This document shows, piece after piece, positions 3,301 to 16,749 of a DNA stretch of 64,000 bases (its first letter is position 1; the number at the start of each line of letters is the position of its first letter). Source of the DNA: Macrostomum lignano. Its lineage: Eukaryota. The notes beneath the pieces are model-generated. The model searched no databases. It was not told the DNA's origin and saw only the letters and a program-made list of their open reading frames with translations. The translations under genes were made by a program, and so were the position numbers. The stretch lies in contig NIVC01000807.1 in assembly GCA_002269645.1 (NCBI GenBank), positions 306,781-370,780 of the forward strand, given 5' to 3'.

Positions 3301-6300
3301 ATATTTCATCCATCGGGCTCTGCACATCCTGCGCGCCTTCCCGCCGGACACTCGCCTGCCAGACGGCACCCCGTTCTGGTCGCCGCCGAAGCGGCCGCCG
3401 CGTCCCGTAGCTTTGAACGCCAACGAGCCGCTGCACGTCAGCTGTTTGCTCAGCTTAGCCAGGCTCTATGCTGGTGCCTTCTGTGTACCAATACCAGCTG
3501 GCAGCGACTCGGCCGGGTTTGTTGCCGCCATGCTGCCTAGCATCACACTGCCAGAGTTTGTGCCCAGCACTAAACCAATTGAAACTGACGAGTCCAAGAG
3601 TCGGGCCGACGCTACGGCCGATTCTACAGCCGGTTCGAATGCCGACCCAGAGGCTGTGCTGGCACTGTTCTCTAGTCTGGCTGAGCCGCTCACCTGTCAG
3701 CCTGTTCAGTTTGATAAGGACAATGATAGCCATGTTGACGCTGTGGCCTCCCTGGCTAATCTGCGTGCCACCATGTACGGCCTGGATACTGTGGACCGGC
3801 TGCAGGTTGGATTCGCTGTCTCTTCTATTGCACTGGCTTCCACTCCAGTCATTCCTTTCCACTGGCGTCCACTCCAGTCATTCCTTTGCACTGGCTCTCC
3901 AGTCATTCCTTTGCACTGGCTCTCCAGTCATTCCTTTGCACTGGCTCTCCAGTCATTCATTTACACTGGCTTCCACTCCAGTCATTCATTTACACTGGCT
4001 TCCACTCCAGTCATTACTTTCCACTGGCTTCCACTCCAGTCATTCCTTTGCACTGGCTCTCCAGTCATTCCTTTGCACTGGCTCTCCAGTCATTCATTTA
4101 CACTACTAAGCAACGGCAGATGGCTCGATTTTGCGAAGGTCCGTCGGGCTGATGTCGGCCTCTAGCACCGCGGCAAGGTGCTCCCTCGGGGTGTACCACC
4201 TCCCCCGGGGTGTACCTCCAGCGGGGTGGGTGTCCAGCGAGTGTACCTCCAGCGGGGTGGGCCTCCCGCGAGTGTACATCCGGCCGGCTGGGCGTCCAGC
4301 GAGTGTACCTTCAGCGCATGGGCCTCCCTCGGGGTGTACATCCGGCGGGGGGATTCCCGCCCCTCCCACCAATGTCGTGTGCACGCGGTTAGTGTAGGAA
4401 GGAAACCCCCGATGCTGACGCAGCCCTGTACACTGAGCAACCGGCCCCCCATGCGGGGGACAGAGAGCAGCCCTGTAGCTGGGGACAGAGAGCAGCCCCT
4501 GTAGCAGGAGGGGTAGTGCGTGGAGAGCCGCCATCCCCCTGTAGCAGGGGACAGATAACAGGCGACCCCTGTAGCAGTATGAGGTGGGGTACAAAGAGAC
4601 ACGGGGTGCTGGGACAGAGAGTGCGTGGAGGCACCCTGCGCTGCCCCGGCATGTCGCAGCACGCGGCGTGGACAGAGAGGGAGTGTGAGTCACACGGAGG
4701 GACAGAGAGCTTCCCCAGGCCGGGGTGGTAGAGGGACAGACCGGCGGTGAGTGATAGAGAGCCCCCCCCCAGGCTGCAGAGGGACAGACAGGCCGCGAGC
4801 AACGTGTTAATGCAACCATAAATAGAAGCAGTGTACAAAACCCTCTGTATGGAGAACATGGAAGAGGGTATAACTGATAACCCCTATTTCAGCAACGAGA
4901 GCGTGCGCGCCAGATTACCCCTCATTGAAAGATTGTTATCAGACACTAGGAAAAGAATCGAGGGATTGACCGCAAAGGAGCGCTTAGAATTCACGTATCT
5001 AGCCCGGCTGGCATTCGTAACTGAAGTAAACATTGAGGAGAGAGAGGTGGCGTTGACTTGGGAGGAAGCAGAAGAAGCGATAAAAACCGGGTCCTGTATG
5101 GTCACAGCCAATCTATGGAGTGCGGCAATACACCTCAATGACACGAGGGGGTTAATTGACACAGAGTTTGTTAGACAAGTTCACACACGCGTGTGTAGAG
5201 GACTGCTCCCGAATGCAGGATCGTATAGAATTAAGCACGCCAAGCCAGCAGGCGCGAGTATGTATTACAGTGCCCCAGAAAATATTGAACGGCAGCTGGT
5301 AAAATTAACTAGAGACATAAAAGAGCCACAAATCTTGCGTGATGCAGTAGTGACAGGAGCATATTTCCTAGAAAAGTTTCTCACCATACACCCCTTTAGC
5401 GACGGCAATGGTAGAACTGCTAGGTTGTTATTATCAAAGTTGATCAACCGGATTCTGCCAGAACCCGTATCATTTGCGTATGCAAATAGAGACACATATC
5501 TCAACTGTCTTTACGAAGCGCGCAGCAGCAACCGGGGGCTCCTAGCGGCGTATTTACTTTTATCAATTGAGAGAACCGTTCTACAGTGGAGGGAATGGTT
5601 GGAAATCTGTTCAGACGGCAGCCTATAAATAAATAAAATTGGTATTTCTCAACAATATCGAAATGTACTGGCAATCGGAAATAGTGTACACCCACGTTGA
5701 CAACGCAGTGCTGGAAGTGGGATATTGGGACCCAAACAAGCCGCGTTTCCGCATCCACTGTCAAAACTGTAGCTGTCCAGGAGCCGTGTTTAGTCGAGCA
5801 CAATGGCATCGAATGAAATTTCTGGGCACTAGCTGCACAGATTACGATCTCGGAGGCGGCGCATCTATCAAAGTTATCGACGGGAAGCGCCTGTACGTAA
5901 AAGGAGACTGCGAATTTCACCTGTCAGACAAAATACTTTGTGCAGTTGAAAAGAATAGAGTCGACAATTTCTTCCACTATTTCTTTCTCGACGAATCTGA
6001 CGAGTCAGAGGAATGAGCTGGATTTCTCGAGACTACCCGCTTTTATCGAGCAAAGAAAGGGCAGAGTACGAGACCCTGAAAAAGTCCACAGACTGGTTAT
6101 GCATTTGTCACGGCAAACCAATTCCCGAACGATTAGTCACCTTTAATGTCGAGGTAGACGAAATTGGGCAAGGGCCTTACAGCACCCAAGAATATACAGA
6201 TGCCCGAATTGACTACTACTTTAGAGACAAGATGCATTTCAAAGCCAATCTTCAAAGAATGGAGCAGATAATTGCCCCAATATTACAAGAGGATCATCGT

Positions 6301-12300: not shown

Positions 12301-15300
12301 GTCGCTGTAGGAGTTCGCGACGTGTCAATCAATAATATTTTCCCGGAGCAGAAGCCTAAACTTGTCATTATGGGAATGGTCAATAGTGCCGCATATAACG
12401 GGGTGGCCACCCATAATCCGTTCAATTTCGAGCCATTTGGGGCGGACAGTGTGGCCCTGTACAAGGACGGTGTCAGTCTGTGCGGTCAACCATTCACTCC
12501 AAGGTTCGCTGCCCAAAACTATGCTCGCGAATACGCCATGCTGTTTAAGAGCCTAGGGAAAATGAATCGCGATTTGGACATTGACCTGTCATATTCGGAT
12601 TATCGCGCCGGTTACTGCTTATTTGCGTGGAATCTAATGCCCGACATGGAACTGGGTGGACATAGCATGCCTCGCGAGAGAGGGAATCTTACCCTACAGA
12701 TAAAGTTTTCTGCAGCCCTACCTGCCGGGATTAACGTTTTGGTGTTTGGTTACTTTGACAACGCGGTGCAAATCACTAGAGGCCGCCAGCCCATTCTGGA
12801 CTACGTATGAACACGTTGGAAATTTTGGAGTGTTTAAAACTACCTGTGGAAGTGCGCGTTTGCCCTCTTGACAGAATTCCTGCACCTGTTTACCCTGCTG
12901 CATATGTAATTAATTTTGACACGGGTAATCTGCCAGGCACCCACTGGGGACTGATTTGCCTACACGATGATAAGAGTGTGACATTTTTTGACCCTCTGTG
13001 TATTGAACCCGTGCCGGAATTGCTCTCGGCTTGGATCTCGAAGCATGTACATTCACCTGTTGCTATGAATCGCCACCCTGTTCAACACCCTCTAAGTGTA
13101 GCGTGTGGGCCGCATGTGATTTTTGTGGCCGAAAAGCACTTTTTAGAGGGGTTGTCGATTGAAAAGATTTTAAGGGAATGTTACTCTACCAATCTGCTTG
13201 AAAATGATTTGATGGTTCGAAAACATGTTCTACAAATAAAATAGTTTTTAATATTTGGAGTGTCAACTCGCCCTGAAAATGTACCAAACAATTGATCCTG
13301 ACGCTCTAAAGTTTGCTCCAAATACTTCGGCGATTTTTGCTGGTGTTAACCAGAGCGGAAAAACAACTCTTGTTAAAGAATTGCTGCGAAACGAGTTTTT
13401 TCAGGACCCTAAGCCTGTTCGCGTTGATTGGTTTGGGCACTATCCAGACCCGGAACTGTTTGAATTACCGTACCCTGTCAATTTTCGCTCGTCTACATTT
13501 AACCCTGAAACCTATGTTCCCGCTCCGAATATTCTACTCGTTGTCGATGATCAAATGCAAGCCATGGAAAAAAACGCTGCTTTTACCGCATTTTTCACTC
13601 GCAAAGTCAGCCATGTGGGATTCCGGCTTTGGTACCTTGTACAAAACCTGTTTGCCAAGGGCAAGGAGCACCGCACTCAATCCCTTAACGCAAACTACCT
13701 TGTATTGTTCCGCAATGTACGGGACGTTAGTACAGTCGCCCATATTGCAAAGCAGCTTGTCCCCGCTAACCCAAAAAGTTTTGTTCAAATGTACGAAGAC
13801 GCCACTAGGGAGCCCTACTCCTACTTGATTGTTAATTGCTTGCAGAACGCATCTGTTCGCTACTATGCTAATGTGTTGGGGCGCTACCCCGTAGTTTATG
13901 CTAAATAAAACACTGTTGGAGAGCTTTGCTCTGTTTGCCGGATGGCCTGAACCTGAAACAACTAAAATACGTGTTTTTTCTTTTCAAGTCCTCTACTGCC
14001 CTGGGGGAGCTCTCTATCACTCACCGCCGGTCTGTCCCTCTACCACCCCGGCCTGGGGAAGCTCTCTGTCCCTCCGTGTGACTCACACTCCCTCTCTGTC
14101 CACGCCGCGTGCTGCGACATGCCGGGCAGCGCAGGGTGCCTCCACGCACTCTCTGTCCCAGCACCCCGTGTCTCTTTGTACCCCACCTCATACTGCTACA
14201 GGGGTCGCCTGTTATCTGTCCCCTGCTACAGGGGGATGGCGGCTCTCCACGCACTACCCCTCCTGCTACAGGGGCTGCTCTCTGTCCCCCGCATGGGGGG
14301 CCGGTTGCTCAGTGTACAGGGCTGCGTCAGCATCGGGGGTTTCCTTCCTACACTAACCGCGTGCACACGACATTGGTGGGAGGGGCGGGAATCCCCCGCC
14401 GGATGTACACCCCGAGGGAGGCCCATGCGCTGAAGGTACACTCGCTGGACGCCCAGCCGGCCGGATGTACACTCGCGGGAGGCCCACCCCGCTGGAGGTA
14501 CACTCGCTGGACACCCACCCCGCTGGAGGTACACCCCGGGGGAGGTGGTACACCCCGAGGGAGCACCTTGCCGCGGTGCTAGAGGCCGACATCAGCCCGA
14601 CGGACCTTCGCAAAATCGAGCCATCTGCCGTTGCTTAGTAGTATTTACACTGGCTTCCACTCCAGTCATTCATTTACACTGGCTTCCACTCCAGTCATTC
14701 CTTTGCACTGGCTTCCACTCCAGCCATTCCTTTCCACTGGCTTCCACTCCAGTCATTCCTTTGCACTGGCTCTCCAGTCATTCCTTTGCACTGGCTCTCC
14801 AGTCATTCATTTACACTGGCTTCCACTCCAGTCATTCATTTACACTGGCTTCCACTCCAGTCATTCCTTTCCACTGGCTTCCACTCCAGTCATTCATTTA
14901 CACTTGCTTCCACTCCAGTCATTCCTTTCCACTGGCTTCCACTCCAGTCATTCATTTACACTAGCTTCCATTTCAGTCATTCCTTTCCACTGGCCTCCAC
15001 TCCAGTCATTCTTTTATACTGGCTTCCACTCTAGCCATTCCTTTCCACTGGCTTCCACTCCAGCCATTCCTTTCCACTGGCTTCCACTCCAGCCATTCCT
15101 TTCCACTGGCTTCCACTCCAGCCATTCCTTTCCACTGGCTTCCACTCCAGCCATTCCTTTCCACTGGCTCCCACTCCAGCCATTCCTTTCCACTGGCTTC
15201 CACTCCAGCCATTCCTTTCCACTGGCTTCCACTCCAGCCATTCCTTTCCACTGGCTTCCACTCCAGCCATTCCTTTCCATTGGCTTCCACTCCAGCCATT

Positions 15301-16749
15301 CCTTTCCACTGGCTTCCACTCCAGCCATTCCTTTCCACTGGCTTCCACTCCAGCCATTCCTTTCCACTGGCTTCCACTCCAGCCATTCCTTTCCACTGGC
15401 TTCCACTCCAGCCATTCCTTTCCACTGGCTTCCACTCCAGTCATTCTTTTCCACTGGCTTCCACTCCAGTCATTCTTTTCCACTGGCTTCCACTCCAGCC
15501 ATTCCTTTCCACTGGCTTCCACTCCAGCCATTCCTTTCCATTGGCTTCCACTCCAGTCATTCTTTTCCACTGGCTTCCACTCCAGCCATTCCTTTCCACT
15601 GGCTTCCACTCCAGCCATTCCTTTCCACTGGCTTCCACTCCAGTCATTCTCTTTAAATCCTATCTTCAACTGGTCGAAATCACACTGTGCATAAAATCCA
15701 CTTCTTTCAGTAATCGCAGCTGAGATGTGAAATCGCTATCAACCAATCACTAAACCCAACATATTGTTGCGCACGCACTGCACAGGTAAAACGAATTGCC
15801 GGCCGCATCGTGCCAGCCATTGCCACCACAACTGCCGCGGTAGCCGGCCTGGTTACCATCGAGATGCTTAAGTACATCCGCCATCGGCCAAAGCCCTCTG
15901 CTCAGCCGGTCAGAGACGCCAATGAGCAACTGTCCGGCTATCGGAATTGCTTCCTGAACCTGGCCGTGCCGCTGCTAGTGCTGAGCGAGCCGGGACCTTG
16001 CCGCAAGCAGCCGCTGCCTGGCGGCCGGAATTTCACCGAATGGGACCGCTGGGAGGTCGGCCCGTTGAGCAGGTCGGCGACAATTGCCCAGCTGACCCAG
16101 CAGGTACAGCAGCGCTACGGCCTGACACCGTCCATGGTGTGCCAGGGTTCCAAGTCTGTCTACATACCCATGCTCCCGGGCCACCGGAAGCGGCTGCAGC
16201 AGACGTGAGCATGCCATTTTGATGACCCATTAAGCAACTCTGTGTCCTTCAATTGACCCGATAAACCATATCCTGTGTCCTTAATTGACCCGGTAAACCA
16301 TATCTAGTCTCCTTCAACTGGCCCGATAAACCATATCCTGTGCCCTTCAACTGACCCGATAAACCATATCCTGTGCCCTTCAACTGACCCGATTAACCAT
16401 ATCCTGTGCCCTTTAACTGACCCGATAAACCATATCCTGTGTCCTTCAACTGACCCGATAAACCATATCCTGTGTCCTTCAATTGACCCAATTAACCATA
16501 TCCTGTGTCCTTCAACTGACCCGATTAACCATATCCTGTGCCCTTTAACTGACCCCGGCAACCCGGCTCTGGCCTCTCAATCGCAGGCTGCTAACTCACG
16601 CCCGCGTGAACCCGGGCGACAGCTACGTGGACCTGACTGTCATGTACGAACCGGACGCTTCAATTTGCCGCGGCGATGCAGCTACAGACGATGATATCGA
16701 GACTGACATTGTTGGCCCGATTGTTCGAGTGCACCTGAGTGACGAGTGA
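391..16749 (+). CDS. UBA6: Ubiquitin-like modifier-activating enzyme 6 (E1); join(391..912,1624..1954,2106..3805,15786..16204,16587..16749), 1044 aa
   Basis: Five exons joined by GT-AG introns with matching phases give one 3135-nt frame. UBA6-type rather than UBA1-type motifs: LYSRQRYVMG, VGCGAIGCELLKNFAL, catalytic-Cys segment DPTEEEQVPYCTLKTFP..ARDKFESSF, KRIAGRIVPAIATTTAAVAGL, UFD end YIPMLPGHRKRL..YVDLTV. Confidence 0.93.
1100..1530. repeat. 21-bp minisatellite (CTAGTCTATGGGATACTACAC) in UBA6 intron 1
   Basis: Tandem units visible directly; 7-aa period in the ORF track. Confidence 0.95.
3830..4101. repeat. 25/29-bp minisatellite in UBA6 intron 3, left of the Polinton insertion
   Basis: Units such as CCACTGGCTTCCACTCCAGTCATTCCTTT; the array continues after the element. 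Confidence 0.9.
4096..4101 (+). other. Left target-site duplication ATTTAC (right copy 14643..14648)
   Basis: Same hexamer immediately outside both TIR tips; removing the element and one copy restores a normal minisatellite unit (CATTCATTTACACTGGC). Confidence 0.92.
4102..4761 (+). repeat. Left terminal inverted repeat (~660 bp)
   Basis: Reverse complement of ~14009..14642 apart from a 25-bp extra unit and homopolymer-length differences; GC-rich with internal direct repeats. Confidence 0.93.
4849..5628 (+). CDS. Fic/Doc-domain protein, predicted AMPylase (~259 aa from first ATG)
   Basis: Canonical Fic motif HPFSDGNGRTARL, preceded by flap region NAGSYRIKHAKPAG; no TPR or TM segment as in metazoan FICD. 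Confidence 0.88.
   Translation: MENMEEGITDNPYFSNESVRARLPLIERLLSDTRKRIEGLTAKERLEFTYLARLAFVTEVNIEEREVALTWEEAEEAIKTGSCMVTANLWSAAIHLNDTRGLIDTEFVRQVHTRVCRGLLPNAGSYRIKHAKPAGASMYYSAPENIERQLVKLTRDIKEPQILRDAVVTGAYFLEKFLTIHPFSDGNGRTARLLLSKLINRILPEPVSFAYANRDTYLNCLYEARSSNRGLLAAYLLLSIERTVLQWREWLEICSDGSL
5663..6016 (+). CDS. Hypothetical protein, 117 aa, acidic C-terminus; weak PC4-like resemblance
   Basis: ATG 39 nt after TATAAATA; stop overlaps next ATG (ATGA). PGAVFSRAQWHRMK loosely recalls PC4 KGISLNPEQWSQLK (inference only). Confidence 0.6.
   Translation: MYWQSEIVYTHVDNAVLEVGYWDPNKPRFRIHCQNCSCPGAVFSRAQWHRMKFLGTSCTDYDLGGGASIKVIDGKRLYVKGDCEFHLSDKILCAVEKNRVDNFFHYFFLDESDESEE
6013..6528 (+). CDS. Hypothetical protein, 171 aa, two Cys/His clusters (CICH, HCSCIH)
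   Basis: ATG-initiated ORF coupled by ATGA overlap; no family recognised. Confidence 0.6.
   Translation: MSWISRDYPLLSSKERAEYETLKKSTDWLCICHGKPIPERLVTFNVEVDEIGQGPYSTQEYTDARIDYYFRDKMHFKANLQRMEQIIAPILQEDHREKIRYRNHQPIAPSWTEHQRIWRPKHSRPVLAKLTINPHCSCIHDTPQTPRPEDRNKRFIFSGFPTPESVVKEGL
6566..6574 (+). promoter_or_regulatory. TATA box (TATATAAGG) upstream of ORF starting at 6617
   Basis: Consensus TATA ~50 nt before the ATG at 6617. Confidence 0.6.
6617..7297 (+). CDS. Hypothetical protein, 226 aa, possible OB-fold ssDNA-binding protein with basic tail
   Basis: ATG in CAACATGG context after TATA box; YRVLFALDTAVIHDSVLTAVPKIQQLQF resembles the C-terminal strands of viral SSBs (inference); K/R-rich NLS-like tail. 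Confidence 0.6.
   Translation: MDTVQDYNSIRIDLFSLKSRGPSYNGTETYDIEYDEQGPLYLANATPVLIVKGVRTDNEGREFIILSQKHLESCIPEAFNSVCHQLSIQGMALLGYNPTFGCDSAAFGLAHDFKMYDKSGKLCTDYKNKTGYYRVLFALDTAVIHDSVLTAVPKIQQLQFIEAPKQAFDRCYWIPPLKIKVGRKRGAAGAERKQKQPKKPLAERRVRKQGVLRKVEPPTELGLGAR
7218..7697 (+). CDS. Open frame of 159 codons with no usable ATG, CxxC motif (KCLLCGK)
   Basis: Fills the gap between two real genes without stops; start codon unresolved. Confidence 0.4.
   Translation: MQNVVCVNRVFCARWNHLPNLDWARARTFHRPRALYNLRIGKCTINFFKRSLSAIVFGCQSTNDVLRLFAQCKPNSVVITTGTYRAEVNVKPNFFRLANSSSRWVEWESEVFNGLVIKSPFRKAKCLLCGKNGRLVFLGIRNYDELCKMYDHVTAILQL
7736..8125 (+). CDS. Polinton-type small protein with C-terminal amphipathic helix (putative membrane-lytic, pVI/cupiennin-like)
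   Basis: LCELSHNVLKGNIDLS followed by QVGGFLPILAKIAAPLITGLFGGLL matches my recollection of a conserved Polinton/adintovirus gene; exact start (7736/7745/7763) uncertain. Confidence 0.7.
   Translation: MHAMLTTLIMTNGISRLCSCRRELEELGDARPHRRRAIIRGADNELMQCLCELSHNVLKGNIDLSPRQFARLKRYREALHDMADKKLSINRKKNMILSDPQVGGFLPILAKIAAPLITGLFGGLLGQRR
8128..8754 (+). CDS. Polinton-type hypothetical protein, 208 aa
   Basis: ATG 2 nt after previous stop; MDKYVVVP start and GETWGGSNVFDLL...FWALLDKARIPMSM pattern recall a conserved Polinton ORF (from memory). Confidence 0.65.
   Translation: MDKYVVVPEEEFNQLRQGTPREIAPKSEYEKLVEYNAKLQTQLAKVKPQKTTKQLFSDRQQRIWNILTEKHPSLNYNQSWEVVFDGETWGGSNVFDLLQAVTTNTNNHPKYSTAFWALLDKARIPMSMLGRKQLPVEEKKVDHMVGTDDYRDEYEHTIATDTRDLTTTRNKGVNAMPKLVDRGTGVGKYHDYQLRPPEKKKKYVTLYK
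8887..9966 (+). CDS. Retroviral-like (rve/DDE) integrase with C-terminal chromodomain-like region
   Basis: LQADLMDM, VIIDVLSK, HVDRGTEF, KANMAERLIRTLR core motifs; C-terminal YVSWRGYPDTFNSFV is chromo-like; typical Polinton c-INT. Confidence 0.93.
   Translation: MRALTALRRVYEQGAAAFSNAARVYQEAKRLAPNLTRRQTREWLETQPSYTRHRRVNRTFKTGKVMSGGFMETLQADLMDMSRYKRWNDGHKYILVIIDVLSKQAFCRAIKLKSDTPAAFESMLANDFPARPLYLHVDRGTEFYNQRMRRILKDNNVKMYSTNSVYKANMAERLIRTLRKRLARYFEHNNTWRWVDYLPNLIGNYNNTTHSTIEMKPSSVGFHNQKRVWEKLYPDQQKDDPVYKKGDFVRISKSRRAFDKEAYDMYSEEVYIISKVCPGPPHFYRISDLSGEVIEGRFYYNELSKSTRPERFVINKVLRRNVLINGVAHHYVSWRGYPDTFNSFVPVNEVINIRQRNNN
9979..11109 (+). CDS. Minor capsid protein (penton, single jelly roll with insertion)
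   Basis: N-term LFLPSNAC..YPENNPAHYFINLP..EVCL and C-term MYIYSSIVDSVIVGDVKVPLL..NPAYLPL..TIEVQINDDMG match the Polinton penton pattern. Confidence 0.85.
   Translation: MHLFLPSNACPEHYPENNPAHYFINLPDTLHFPNHEVCLERIYFTKEFESFKKSIPITIREQEGLLTASSFASLCLAAGLKTPEECISGFLNGIRYVEGDNKKIVFLRTSPTAFMIVNTSKSTVGIKFPDALPKVFKLVAGFESNEDLPTELVLHAGCAASITAVVEEPTVQSMDHAPIIRQVTSAASDQIYFMQSGYYSTPKRLVEELNDLIWKRIKDLIAAPAPRKDFFGYSEVTNRCYYIGSVDYMFGLGRLTSVLGFPEHDYTTPFFGISDFYANASMELTGGIQTMYIYSSIVDSVIVGDVKVPLLGAIPMDPKVQGGREYYEFVNPAYLPLVKHPFKTIEVQINDDMGRDMTKVMRGKTVLSVNIREKKL
11153..11497 (+). CDS. Small basic core-protein-like ORF (pVII/pX-like)
   Basis: QRGNG and QRGSG motifs, K/R-rich C-terminus, position between penton and major capsid. 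Confidence 0.75.
   Translation: MPSILIGGALPVFAGAQRGNGLFGSIARFALPILKSFGKNVLRHGTRALATTVNDSLEQGGNLKESVLRNSVQAAKDAFKDTVTQRGSGRRRKKAPKRLNSDIFSTINKKPRFN
11527..12810 (+). CDS. Major capsid protein (double jelly roll), 427 aa
   Basis: CTKSEFELF..Q..EIHP..VEFRI..FVDL N-terminus, APINYLLETMFKNVSLSING, NPFNFEPF and GYCLFAWNLMPD match Polinton PY/hexon. Confidence 0.9.
   Translation: MSECLCTKSEFELFAPRAHQIAAVGSTTEEIHPVASVENASVVEFRIVGGETFVDLNDIDLEIKGCIKRANGADLAADSNVAPINYLLETMFKNVSLSINGTHIESSNNNHAYKAYIRTCLSYGSDSKSNQLRMMGYAKDAGGQMAAVGNPGFVTRKAMAAGSRTFHLYGPLSLDFFVTNDRMLLPYTDMVVTLTLQNSGFVVENHAEGVDAKLVLQSAKLHVRRVKANPQLALEIEEQLATQNAVYPIERLVVHNTSVAVGVRDVSINNIFPEQKPKLVIMGMVNSAAYNGVATHNPFNFEPFGADSVALYKDGVSLCGQPFTPRFAAQNYAREYAMLFKSLGKMNRDLDIDLSYSDYRAGYCLFAWNLMPDMELGGHSMPRERGNLTLQIKFSAALPAGINVLVFGYFDNAVQITRGRQPILDYV
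12807..13244 (+). CDS. Adenain-like cysteine maturation protease
   Basis: VINFD..PGTHW (His), FFDP (Asp), QHPLSVACG (Gln, Cys); ATGA overlap with capsid stop. Confidence 0.88.
   Translation: MNTLEILECLKLPVEVRVCPLDRIPAPVYPAAYVINFDTGNLPGTHWGLICLHDDKSVTFFDPLCIEPVPELLSAWISKHVHSPVAMNRHPVQHPLSVACGPHVIFVAEKHFLEGLSIEKILRECYSTNLLENDLMVRKHVLQIK
13279..13908 (+). CDS. A32/FtsK-like DNA packaging ATPase
   Basis: Walker A GVNQSGKTT, Walker B LLVVDD, FTRKVSH..VQNLF..RTQSLNANYLVLFRNVRD. Confidence 0.92.
   Translation: MYQTIDPDALKFAPNTSAIFAGVNQSGKTTLVKELLRNEFFQDPKPVRVDWFGHYPDPELFELPYPVNFRSSTFNPETYVPAPNILLVVDDQMQAMEKNAAFTAFFTRKVSHVGFRLWYLVQNLFAKGKEHRTQSLNANYLVLFRNVRDVSTVAHIAKQLVPANPKSFVQMYEDATREPYSYLIVNCLQNASVRYYANVLGRYPVVYAK
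14009..14642 (-). repeat. Right terminal inverted repeat (~634 bp)
   Basis: Reverse complement of the left TIR, ending GCTTAGTAGT. Confidence 0.93.
14643..15650. repeat. 29-bp minisatellite in UBA6 intron 3, right of the insertion
   Basis: CCACTGGCTTCCACTCCAG(C/T)CATTCCTTT units; produces the spurious periodic ORFs. Confidence 0.95.
16240..16556. repeat. 33-bp minisatellite in UBA6 intron 4
   Basis: GACCCGATAAACCATATCCTGTGCCCTTCAACT units. Confidence 0.93.

Follow-up and report, generated by a model that had tools for sequence, protein, structure and literature searches.

The stretch analysed here, a window of 64,000 nucleotides from contig NIVC01000807.1 of the flatworm Macrostomum lignano, holds at positions 4102-14642 a capsid-encoding element of 10,541 bp that we regard as probably one half of a two-segment virus. 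It starts ACTACTAAG and finishes CTTAGTAGT. Long terminal inverted repeats (TIRs) form its ends, the left at 4102-4782 (plus strand, ~680 bp) and its inverted copy at 13990-14642 (minus strand), and they align over ~655-680 bp with 652 matches, one mismatch, one 25-bp indel and a few small gaps. A 6-bp target-site duplication (TSD), ATTTAC, flanks them at 4096-4101, inside a 25/29-bp minisatellite, and at 14643-14648; long TIRs with a 6-bp TSD are among the defining features of Polintons/Mavericks. The initial annotation of this DNA had reported matching TIR tips, a perfect 6-bp TSD and a longest open reading frame (ORF) of 427 aa, all of which hold, with TIRs of ~670 bp and 427 aa as the longest ATG ORF. 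All coding ORFs lie on the plus strand. Copies of the element, which we call capsid segments, fall into two families, A (that of the window) and B.

A retroviral-like (rve) integrase of 359 aa (8887-9966; Pfam rve E 1.7e-9), another defining Polinton/Maverick gene, is followed by a penton-like minor capsid ORF (376 aa, 9979-11109), a basic core-like ORF (114 aa, 11153-11497), the major capsid protein (MCP) gene (427 aa, 11527-12810), a cysteine protease (145 aa, 12807-13244) and a packaging ATPase (209 aa, 13279-13908) with the Walker A motif GVNQSGKT. An AlphaFold2 model of the capsid protein built on an 11-sequence alignment (mean predicted local distance difference test, pLDDT, of 77) has PBCV-1 Vp54 (E 2e-17) and the mavirus MCP (E 5e-16) as its top Foldseek matches, and identifies the protein as a double-jelly-roll (DJR) MCP of the kind that Polintons/Mavericks encode. 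The minor capsid protein, protease and packaging ATPase that also belong to such elements were recognised by our own profiles and by synteny with full-length Polintons. The protease, penton-like and core-like labels come from motifs, own profiles and synteny rather than from Pfam: the protease has His/Asp/Gln/Cys-bearing motifs (Peptidase_C48 E 0.06), the core-like ORF was assigned by its own profile and synteny, and the penton-like ORF, the weakest of the virion gene calls, by synteny and weak own-profile matches (E 1e-6 to 4e-5).

Upstream of the integrase lie two conserved Polinton ORFs, of 129 aa (7736-8125) and 208 aa (8128-8754), both syntenic with full-length Polintons, and before them a frame without an ATG (7224-7697) that encodes a TATA-binding protein (TBP)-like domain, a candidate late-transcription factor. 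Its Pfam match (E 9.5e-5) sits just under the curated cut-off, 14 of its 15 PDB matches are TBPs (best E 0.003), and it is 73-78% identical in family B. A phase-0 GT..AG intron is predicted at 7157-7223 between this exon and a preceding ORF of 226 aa (6617-7297); donor and acceptor are kept in 18 of 18 capsid segments, 67 nt apart in A and 195-197 nt in B. This predicted alternative splice from the 226-aa ORF would reach the TBP-like domain; the unspliced product ends in a basic tail. The initial annotation had described the ORFs as uninterrupted and the gaps between them as at most ~130 bp. The first statement is right for the integrase, penton, core, capsid, protease and ATPase genes and misdescribes the element as a whole, because the ATG-less TBP-like frame (7161-7697) is likely a spliced second exon; the second fails at a gap of 440 bp (7297-7736), which that frame occupies. 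Every capsid segment further carries seven TATAAATA motifs on its coding strand, in the window element mostly just upstream of genes, and together with the TBP-like exon they hint at a possible self-encoded late-gene activator.

A family B DNA polymerase with protein priming (pPolB) inside the element is part of the definition of Polintons/Mavericks as given in PMC5499653. The window element has none: pPolB motifs, which the initial annotation had not seen either, are absent from every frame, and 0 of 240 frames match the pPolB profile at E<10. The same is true of the 17 other bounded capsid segments. Two profiles run over the 4,681 frames of all 18 gave best E values of at least 1 and recovered all control polymerases, so that pPolB in all sister copies, a possibility the initial annotation had raised, gives way to pPolB in 0 of 18. 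These absence tests rest on --max profile runs with controls, because three metagenome loci (L151, L191 and L196) had appeared polymerase-less under default filters and do contain pPolB.

A TIR search of the genome, with 40 scored matches of 147 candidates, returned mostly pairs ~10.5 kb apart. The ten sister loci examined are all colinear with the window over the fetched stretch (C355 being cut at its contig end), and the extra length of the longer ones consists of foreign insertions or a duplicated end, not of a polymerase. Divergence from the window element is 0.09-1.83% in eight bounded family-A sisters, all with perfect TSDs; two of the eight are a single insertion that was assembled twice. 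Family B keeps the gene order, its MCP is 88% identical to that of A, and the TSD is perfect in 7 of 9 bounded copies. A census with the 114-aa ORF as probe (77 of 77 candidates scored) found 61 loci, 27 A and 34 B, plus one weak match. Between the families, the proportion of nonsynonymous differences (pN) in capsid-segment genes runs from 0.06 (MCP) to 0.41 (penton) against a synonymous proportion (pS) of 0.67-0.92; the polymerase-less layout has therefore outlasted near-saturation of silent sites under purifying selection. MCP relatives at 80-81% identity (P0002-P0004) in ENA/Logan records suggest further lineages in other samples.

These copies speak to the idea that the element is a deletion derivative or a misassembly of an ordinary Polinton. 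Frameshifts in many of the sister copies, part of them probably due to sequencing error, count in favour of that idea; polymerase-less copies that are colinear and occupy different target sites, in both families, the presence of ~0.9 of the segment's words in public DNA-type runs, and censuses that gave no full-length parent make it hardly tenable. The multi-copy state, the two families and the different target sites likewise agree with the earlier view of a young element rather than a decayed deletion product.

Replication by a gene hidden within the segment itself can be weighed against its remaining ORFs. Three have no assignment: one of 117 aa (5663-6016), found in family A only, one of 171 aa (6013-6528), kept in family B with pN 0.16-0.24 and pS ~0.7, and the beta-rich ORF of 226 aa, which has homologs at 41-61% identity in ENA/JGI records. 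ESM Atlas and PHROGs returned nothing usable. The 226-aa ORF has no family match, a PDB/Pfam search with a 4-sequence alignment gave nothing usable, and its single-sequence fold reaches a pLDDT of 36; our guess, from resemblance, is an OB-fold protein binding single-stranded DNA (ssDNA). The missing assignments and the low-confidence fold leave some room for a cryptic small replicase among these ORFs, but we consider one very improbable: none of the ORFs is long enough for a B-family polymerase, a Walker A motif occurs nowhere but in the packaging ATPase, the 117-aa ORF is missing from family B, and self-replication would leave unexplained a set of integrase-less polymerase elements with the same tips.

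Those elements emerged from a genome search with Pfam DNA_pol_B_2 (91 of 974 candidates scored), which returned two kinds of locus. Ordinary Polintons have MCP, integrase and ATPase genes beside the polymerase and start AGTAGT in all 6 cases with ends found. The others, here called polymerase segments, are capsid-less TIR elements of 8.8-10.8 kb that start ACTACT or ACTACG. Among the 25 such loci examined, both tips are present in 23 (17 A and 6 B), C2285b and C2757 having been dropped before this count for want of a tip pair inside the fetched stretch. The 23 include C1090 (11.3 kb), which has an inverted duplication and no palm exon. None of the 23 is matched by any of the 13 capsid-segment proteins, and 11 capsid-segment gene profiles run over their 5,324 frames gave best E values of at least 0.12 while matching full-length Polintons. 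Without an integrase, they nonetheless carry integration footprints, with a perfect 6-bp TSD in 23 of 23. The TATAAATA motifs are almost absent from them. A census with the palm exon (134 of 134 candidates scored) counted ~96 loci, ~56 A and ~40 B. Since the loci include assembly or chromosome duplicates, such figures do not give numbers of independent insertions. Capsid and polymerase segments share a contig in only three pairs, at 48, 166 and 469 kb. The search for pPolB elements with the same termini that the initial annotation had proposed thus yields dozens of separate, capsid-less elements. A degraded pPolB relic at 35-46% identity (C234) showed no capsid genes within the 30 kb examined, and weak matches at C211, C1065, C2269 and C154 led nowhere.

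The segment pPolB has exonuclease motifs, all three polymerase motifs and a VSR-like insertion. A VSR-like domain is described for mollusc-type pPolB2 (10.1101/2023.08.22.554363). The polymerase is up to 94-99% identical to UniRef entries of Macrostomum lignano, and otherwise comes near mollusc and other database proteins only, at 27-31% identity (E 1e-50 to 1e-60). A PC4-like gene accompanies it in 17 of 17 A and 2 of 6 B segments (Pfam E 1e-5 for the B protein), the same two B segments also carrying a dUTPase. GT..AG introns interrupt the pPolB gene at motifs A and B whichever the family, and family A has a further one at motif C; their lengths are of any phase and their letters visibly differ between A and B. 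In read contigs on one A copy (L069), the sequence is joined over 5831-5899 in 1 of 4 runs and over 6447-6519 and 6812-6882 in 3 of 4 each, and three upstream GT..AG gaps are joined in 2, 2 and 4 of the 4 runs; these are joints such as splicing gives, in four runs, RNA by our guess, that were chosen from 24 listed since they contain the capsid segment. No run recorded as RNA contains the capsid segment's sequence, the run type again being only guessed. In several family-B copies (C1263) the motif-A intron is in-frame, stop-free and 81-87 nt long.

What the two classes share is their tips. BLASTN of one A capsid segment against four polymerase elements found no common DNA except one chance-level match of 36 nt, and beyond the first ~31 nt, which match by family, capsid and polymerase segments have little in common. 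In the window these are positions 4102-4132 (plus strand), which tip comparison finds also in family-A polymerase segments and palindromic satellites; they would serve as replication origin and integrase attachment site. Over positions 1-31 the mean capsid-versus-polymerase identity is 0.72 in A and 0.76 in B, much like the 0.70-0.80 within a class, against 0.47-0.52 across families, and the nearest polymerase tip belongs to the same family for 18 of 18 A and 18 of 18 B capsid tips. Tip patterns match the genome 166 times (A) and 135 times (B), the places listed being the first 100 of each, and reversed controls match 0 times. Letter-identical tip variants occur on both classes for 3 of 28 in family A, and in family B three of four polymerase blocks at positions 6-15 occur on capsid tips too. 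Tip positions 8-27 (window 4109-4128) form a combinatorial mosaic of short variant blocks, and left and right tips are unlike each other in 8 of the 18 capsid elements and in 6 of the 23 polymerase elements; the mosaic could reflect end recombination or escape from host recognition.

Complementary gene sets thus lie on separate TIR elements of similar size, with family-matched tips and 6-bp TSDs on both; read contigs contain spliced pPolB joints, and both gene sets are under strong amino-acid constraint (pN 0.06-0.41 against pS 0.59-0.92 between A and B). Essential genes divided in this complementary way between molecules that have their termini in common are what characterises a segmented virus. 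We therefore read the window element as one segment of a bipartite Polinton-like virus, the one with capsid and integrase; the other would supply a spliced pPolB, the two halves complementing each other in trans. We give this reading a probability of roughly 0.7. Following what is known of Polinton and adenovirus biology, the terminal protein/pPolB from the polymerase segment would prime at the shared ACTAC tips of either molecule, and the capsid segment's integrase would recognise the same tip, insert either molecule and make the 6-bp TSD. The ATPase, capsid protein and protease would build particles and package molecules of ~9-10.5 kb, probably one per particle, as suggested by the narrow size range: capsid segments, polymerase segments and most full palindromes cluster at ~9-10.8 kb, and ordinary Polintons with ends found here measure 14-17.5 kb. 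That replication is borrowed, as the initial annotation proposed, stands insofar as the polymerase must come in trans; its donor is probably a dedicated partner class rather than the host or an autonomous helper Polinton. The same annotation's term satellite-like fits less well than segment, since the partner with the same tips itself lacks capsid, integrase and ATPase, and the dependence looks mutual.

Co-replication would allow tips and TIR blocks to recombine between segments, and gene-less palindromes with the same tips could ride along. Recombinants are present: a chimera (C1438) joins a polymerase-B left end to a capsid-B right tip within one TSD, two within-family recombinants (C56 and C816) have satellite arms inside capsid-type TIRs, and two polymerase-B elements (C566 and C260) have satellite-like arms. 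Of 32 further tip-bounded loci, the majority are palindromes with few genes. They span 3.4-9.6 kb, or more where insertions have lengthened them, and their very long inverted arms enclose a GC-rich central hairpin; one group occurs in A and an unrelated one in B, and full palindromes measure ~9.2-9.5 kb. From their sequence these are likely fold-back satellites of the two-segment system. Four giant palindromes (C977:137703-146993, L096; C436, L097; C657:75348-84724, L113; C2205, L116) have ~4.6-kb arms, A or B tips and 6-bp TSDs, with the central hairpin found in both orientations.

Several observations weigh against a bipartite virus. Neither virions nor free linear DNA were seen, and status as a bounded element is confirmed for only 23 of the ~96 polymerase loci. 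Family-B tip variants of 27 nt are shared between the classes in 0 of 29 cases (six B polymerase elements sampled), and over TIR positions 32-55 polymerase A is like capsid B (0.78) and unlike capsid A (0.26), a likeness that suggests an old TIR exchange or a retained ancestral TIR. The motif-A intron is joined in one of the four runs, and two runs have loose ends of unspliced type there; regulated retention of this intron could switch the polymerase off. Of the full-length Polinton polymerases tested, the segment pPolB matches 0 of the 9 resident in this genome and only 4 of 12 from metagenomes, the latter weakly (E 1e-5 to 6e-3). MCP (in a quick tree) and pPolB both sit on long branches, and a full-length ancestor common to both segments was not found. 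Given these mismatches and long branches, the pair may have arisen by fission of one ancestor or be a partnership of unrelated parts. Finally, autonomous Polintons are abundant in this genome, and their enzymes could act in trans too.

One rival reading has a satellite replicated by an autonomous helper Polinton or the host, as in the initial annotation, and treats the pPolB-only elements as unrelated bystanders. The many full-length Polintons with long open pPolB frames in the genome would suit such a helper. The AGTAGT start of all those with ends found (6 of 6) does not, nor does the fact that, among pPolB elements, ACTAC tips were seen on the capsid-less ones alone, whose tips pair with capsid segments by family, and we judge a helper of this kind improbable.

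The polymerase mismatches also bear on where the two segments came from. Full-length metagenome Polintons (e.g. L142 and L165, among the 27 of 80 retained loci that reach 5 kb) have the order polymerase, ATPase, 129-aa ORF, 208-aa ORF, integrase, penton, 114-aa ORF, MCP, protease, so that the capsid segment corresponds to a Polinton block minus the polymerase, with the ATPase moved to the far end. The segment pPolB is not near the polymerases of the Polintons closest in gene order. The polymerase tree contains no full-length Polinton of this genome, since none aligned by BLASTP. Possible origins are the fission of a single ancestor and the capture of a polymerase from elsewhere. In a rival reading, a polymerase-less capsid element and a plasmid-like, transpoviron-like pPolB element of separate origin converged on their tips and complement each other in trans, possibly only inside the germline genome and without packaging of both. 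The different class of the segment pPolB, the absence of particle evidence and published pPolB replacement among Polintons (10.1101/2023.08.22.554363) are in keeping with this. Two parallel cognate pairs, A and B, each near synonymous saturation, a clustering of the classes at ~9-10.8 kb as a packaging limit would give, and constraint on all virion genes speak against it, and separate origin seems to us rather unlikely.

Compared with known systems, the capsid segment resembles Polintons/Mavericks (polintoviruses, animal adintoviruses) in its rve integrase, DJR capsid, penton-like ORF, protease, ATPase, long TIRs and 6-bp TSD, and full-length metagenome Polintons in the gene order from the 129-aa ORF to the protease. 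It differs in a pPolB gene that is housed on another TIR element and interrupted by spliceosomal introns, in tips of ACTACT/ACTACG instead of AGTAGT, in the far-end position of the ATPase and in the TBP-like exon. Its ends, ACTACT..AGTAGT in A and ACTACG in B, depart from the AGTAGT/AGAGAG-type motif described for Mavericks together with an (AC)3A variant (PMC8097293), and its 10.5 kb compare with 12.7-24.6 kb for intact vertebrate Mavericks, reported there with intronless core genes (PMC8097293). Since pPolB is present only when both segments are taken together, the window element alone falls outside Polintons by definition and is likely half of a two-segment Polinton-like virus.

Bidnaviruses and the Drosophila Vesanto virus are described as segmented, with pPolB on some segments and similar TIRs across segments (PMC8363768), and as ssDNA viruses with parvovirus-type single-jelly-roll capsids and NS1, in a text that names no integrase for them (10.1101/2024.03.25.586562). 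The likeness lies in pPolB on one segment and similar termini across segments; here, unlike there, a DJR capsid module and an integrase are present, both segments integrate, and no ORF of the window element matches an NS1-type protein, which sets the system apart from bidnaviruses. Polinton-like viruses and Tlr1, without active pPolB, and transpovirons, without capsid genes, are linear with TIRs and encode their own superfamily 1 helicase with an inactivated polymerase domain (PMC5499653). In contrast, a helicase was seen on neither segment, the window element having no Pfam match to a helicase or helicase-polymerase fusion and 427 aa as its longest ORF; all three polymerase motifs are present in the partner.

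Non-autonomous Polinton derivatives are moved in trans through shared termini and depend one-way on a complete element. The palindromic satellites resemble them; the coding classes do not, as no complete element with these tips was found and each class lacks the other's genes. No report of a two-segment Polinton was found in the full-text literature, where supplements, subscription papers and Repbase may hold earlier annotation, and to our knowledge none of the Polintons or their DJR relatives has been described with a segmented genome.

By definition a Polinton is one molecule with both polymerase and integrase, and work on genome segmentation has so far dealt mainly with ssDNA and RNA viruses. 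A lasting division into halves that depend on each other and integrate separately, if true, would mean that segmentation can arise in DJR double-stranded DNA (dsDNA) viruses, and would offer a model of the transition between Polintons and segmented pPolB viruses like the bidnaviruses. For the complete picture, a segmented DJR dsDNA animal virus with two integrating, separately packaged segments, recombining 31-nt ends that keep the segments compatible, and two co-diverged strains, each accompanied by a non-coding palindromic satellite of its own, we see the chances as even. Screens that demand pPolB and integrase within one TIR pair, or intronless ORFs, would miss such systems. Because partners, shared tips and a satellite class are mapped in a laboratory flatworm with RNA interference and long-read resources, segment dependence, end specificity and particle formation by animal Polintons become directly testable.

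The remaining observations concern cargo, insertions and the host site. A Fic-domain protein of 259 aa (4849-5628; Pfam E 6.7e-14) adjoins the left TIR as family-A-only cargo, with its active-site motif HPFxDGNGRxxR intact; family B lacks both this gene and the 117-aa ORF. Rfam gave 0 matches in 4 loci, and an IMG/VR search returned no locus. Long loci considered as full-length parents contain other sequence. The 13.9 kb of C2210 reflect a foreign 3.4-kb element with CAGTG-type ends (C2210:10226-13581) inside the penton gene, without a long ORF. C4 has an insertion in its TIR (C4:388369-391197) with a 943-aa ORF, whose start is THAP-like, and is no capsid-plus-polymerase element; neither are the long tip-bounded spans of C56, C126, C600, C513, C583 and C485. 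Tandem retroelement-like ORFs lie within a further tip-bounded element (C558:43471-53355). Large internal inverted duplications of 3.7 and 4.7 kb, in a capsid-B segment (C1313:243594-257956) and a polymerase-A segment (C1090:36570-47863), show the same fold-back pattern as the palindromic satellites. The minisatellite that received the window element lies in an intron of a ubiquitin-activating E1 gene, recognised upstream by Pfam ThiF and UBA_E1_SCCH (2069-3805); the E1 frame picks up again downstream near 15,790 (~15786-16208), and the E1 frames are still open.

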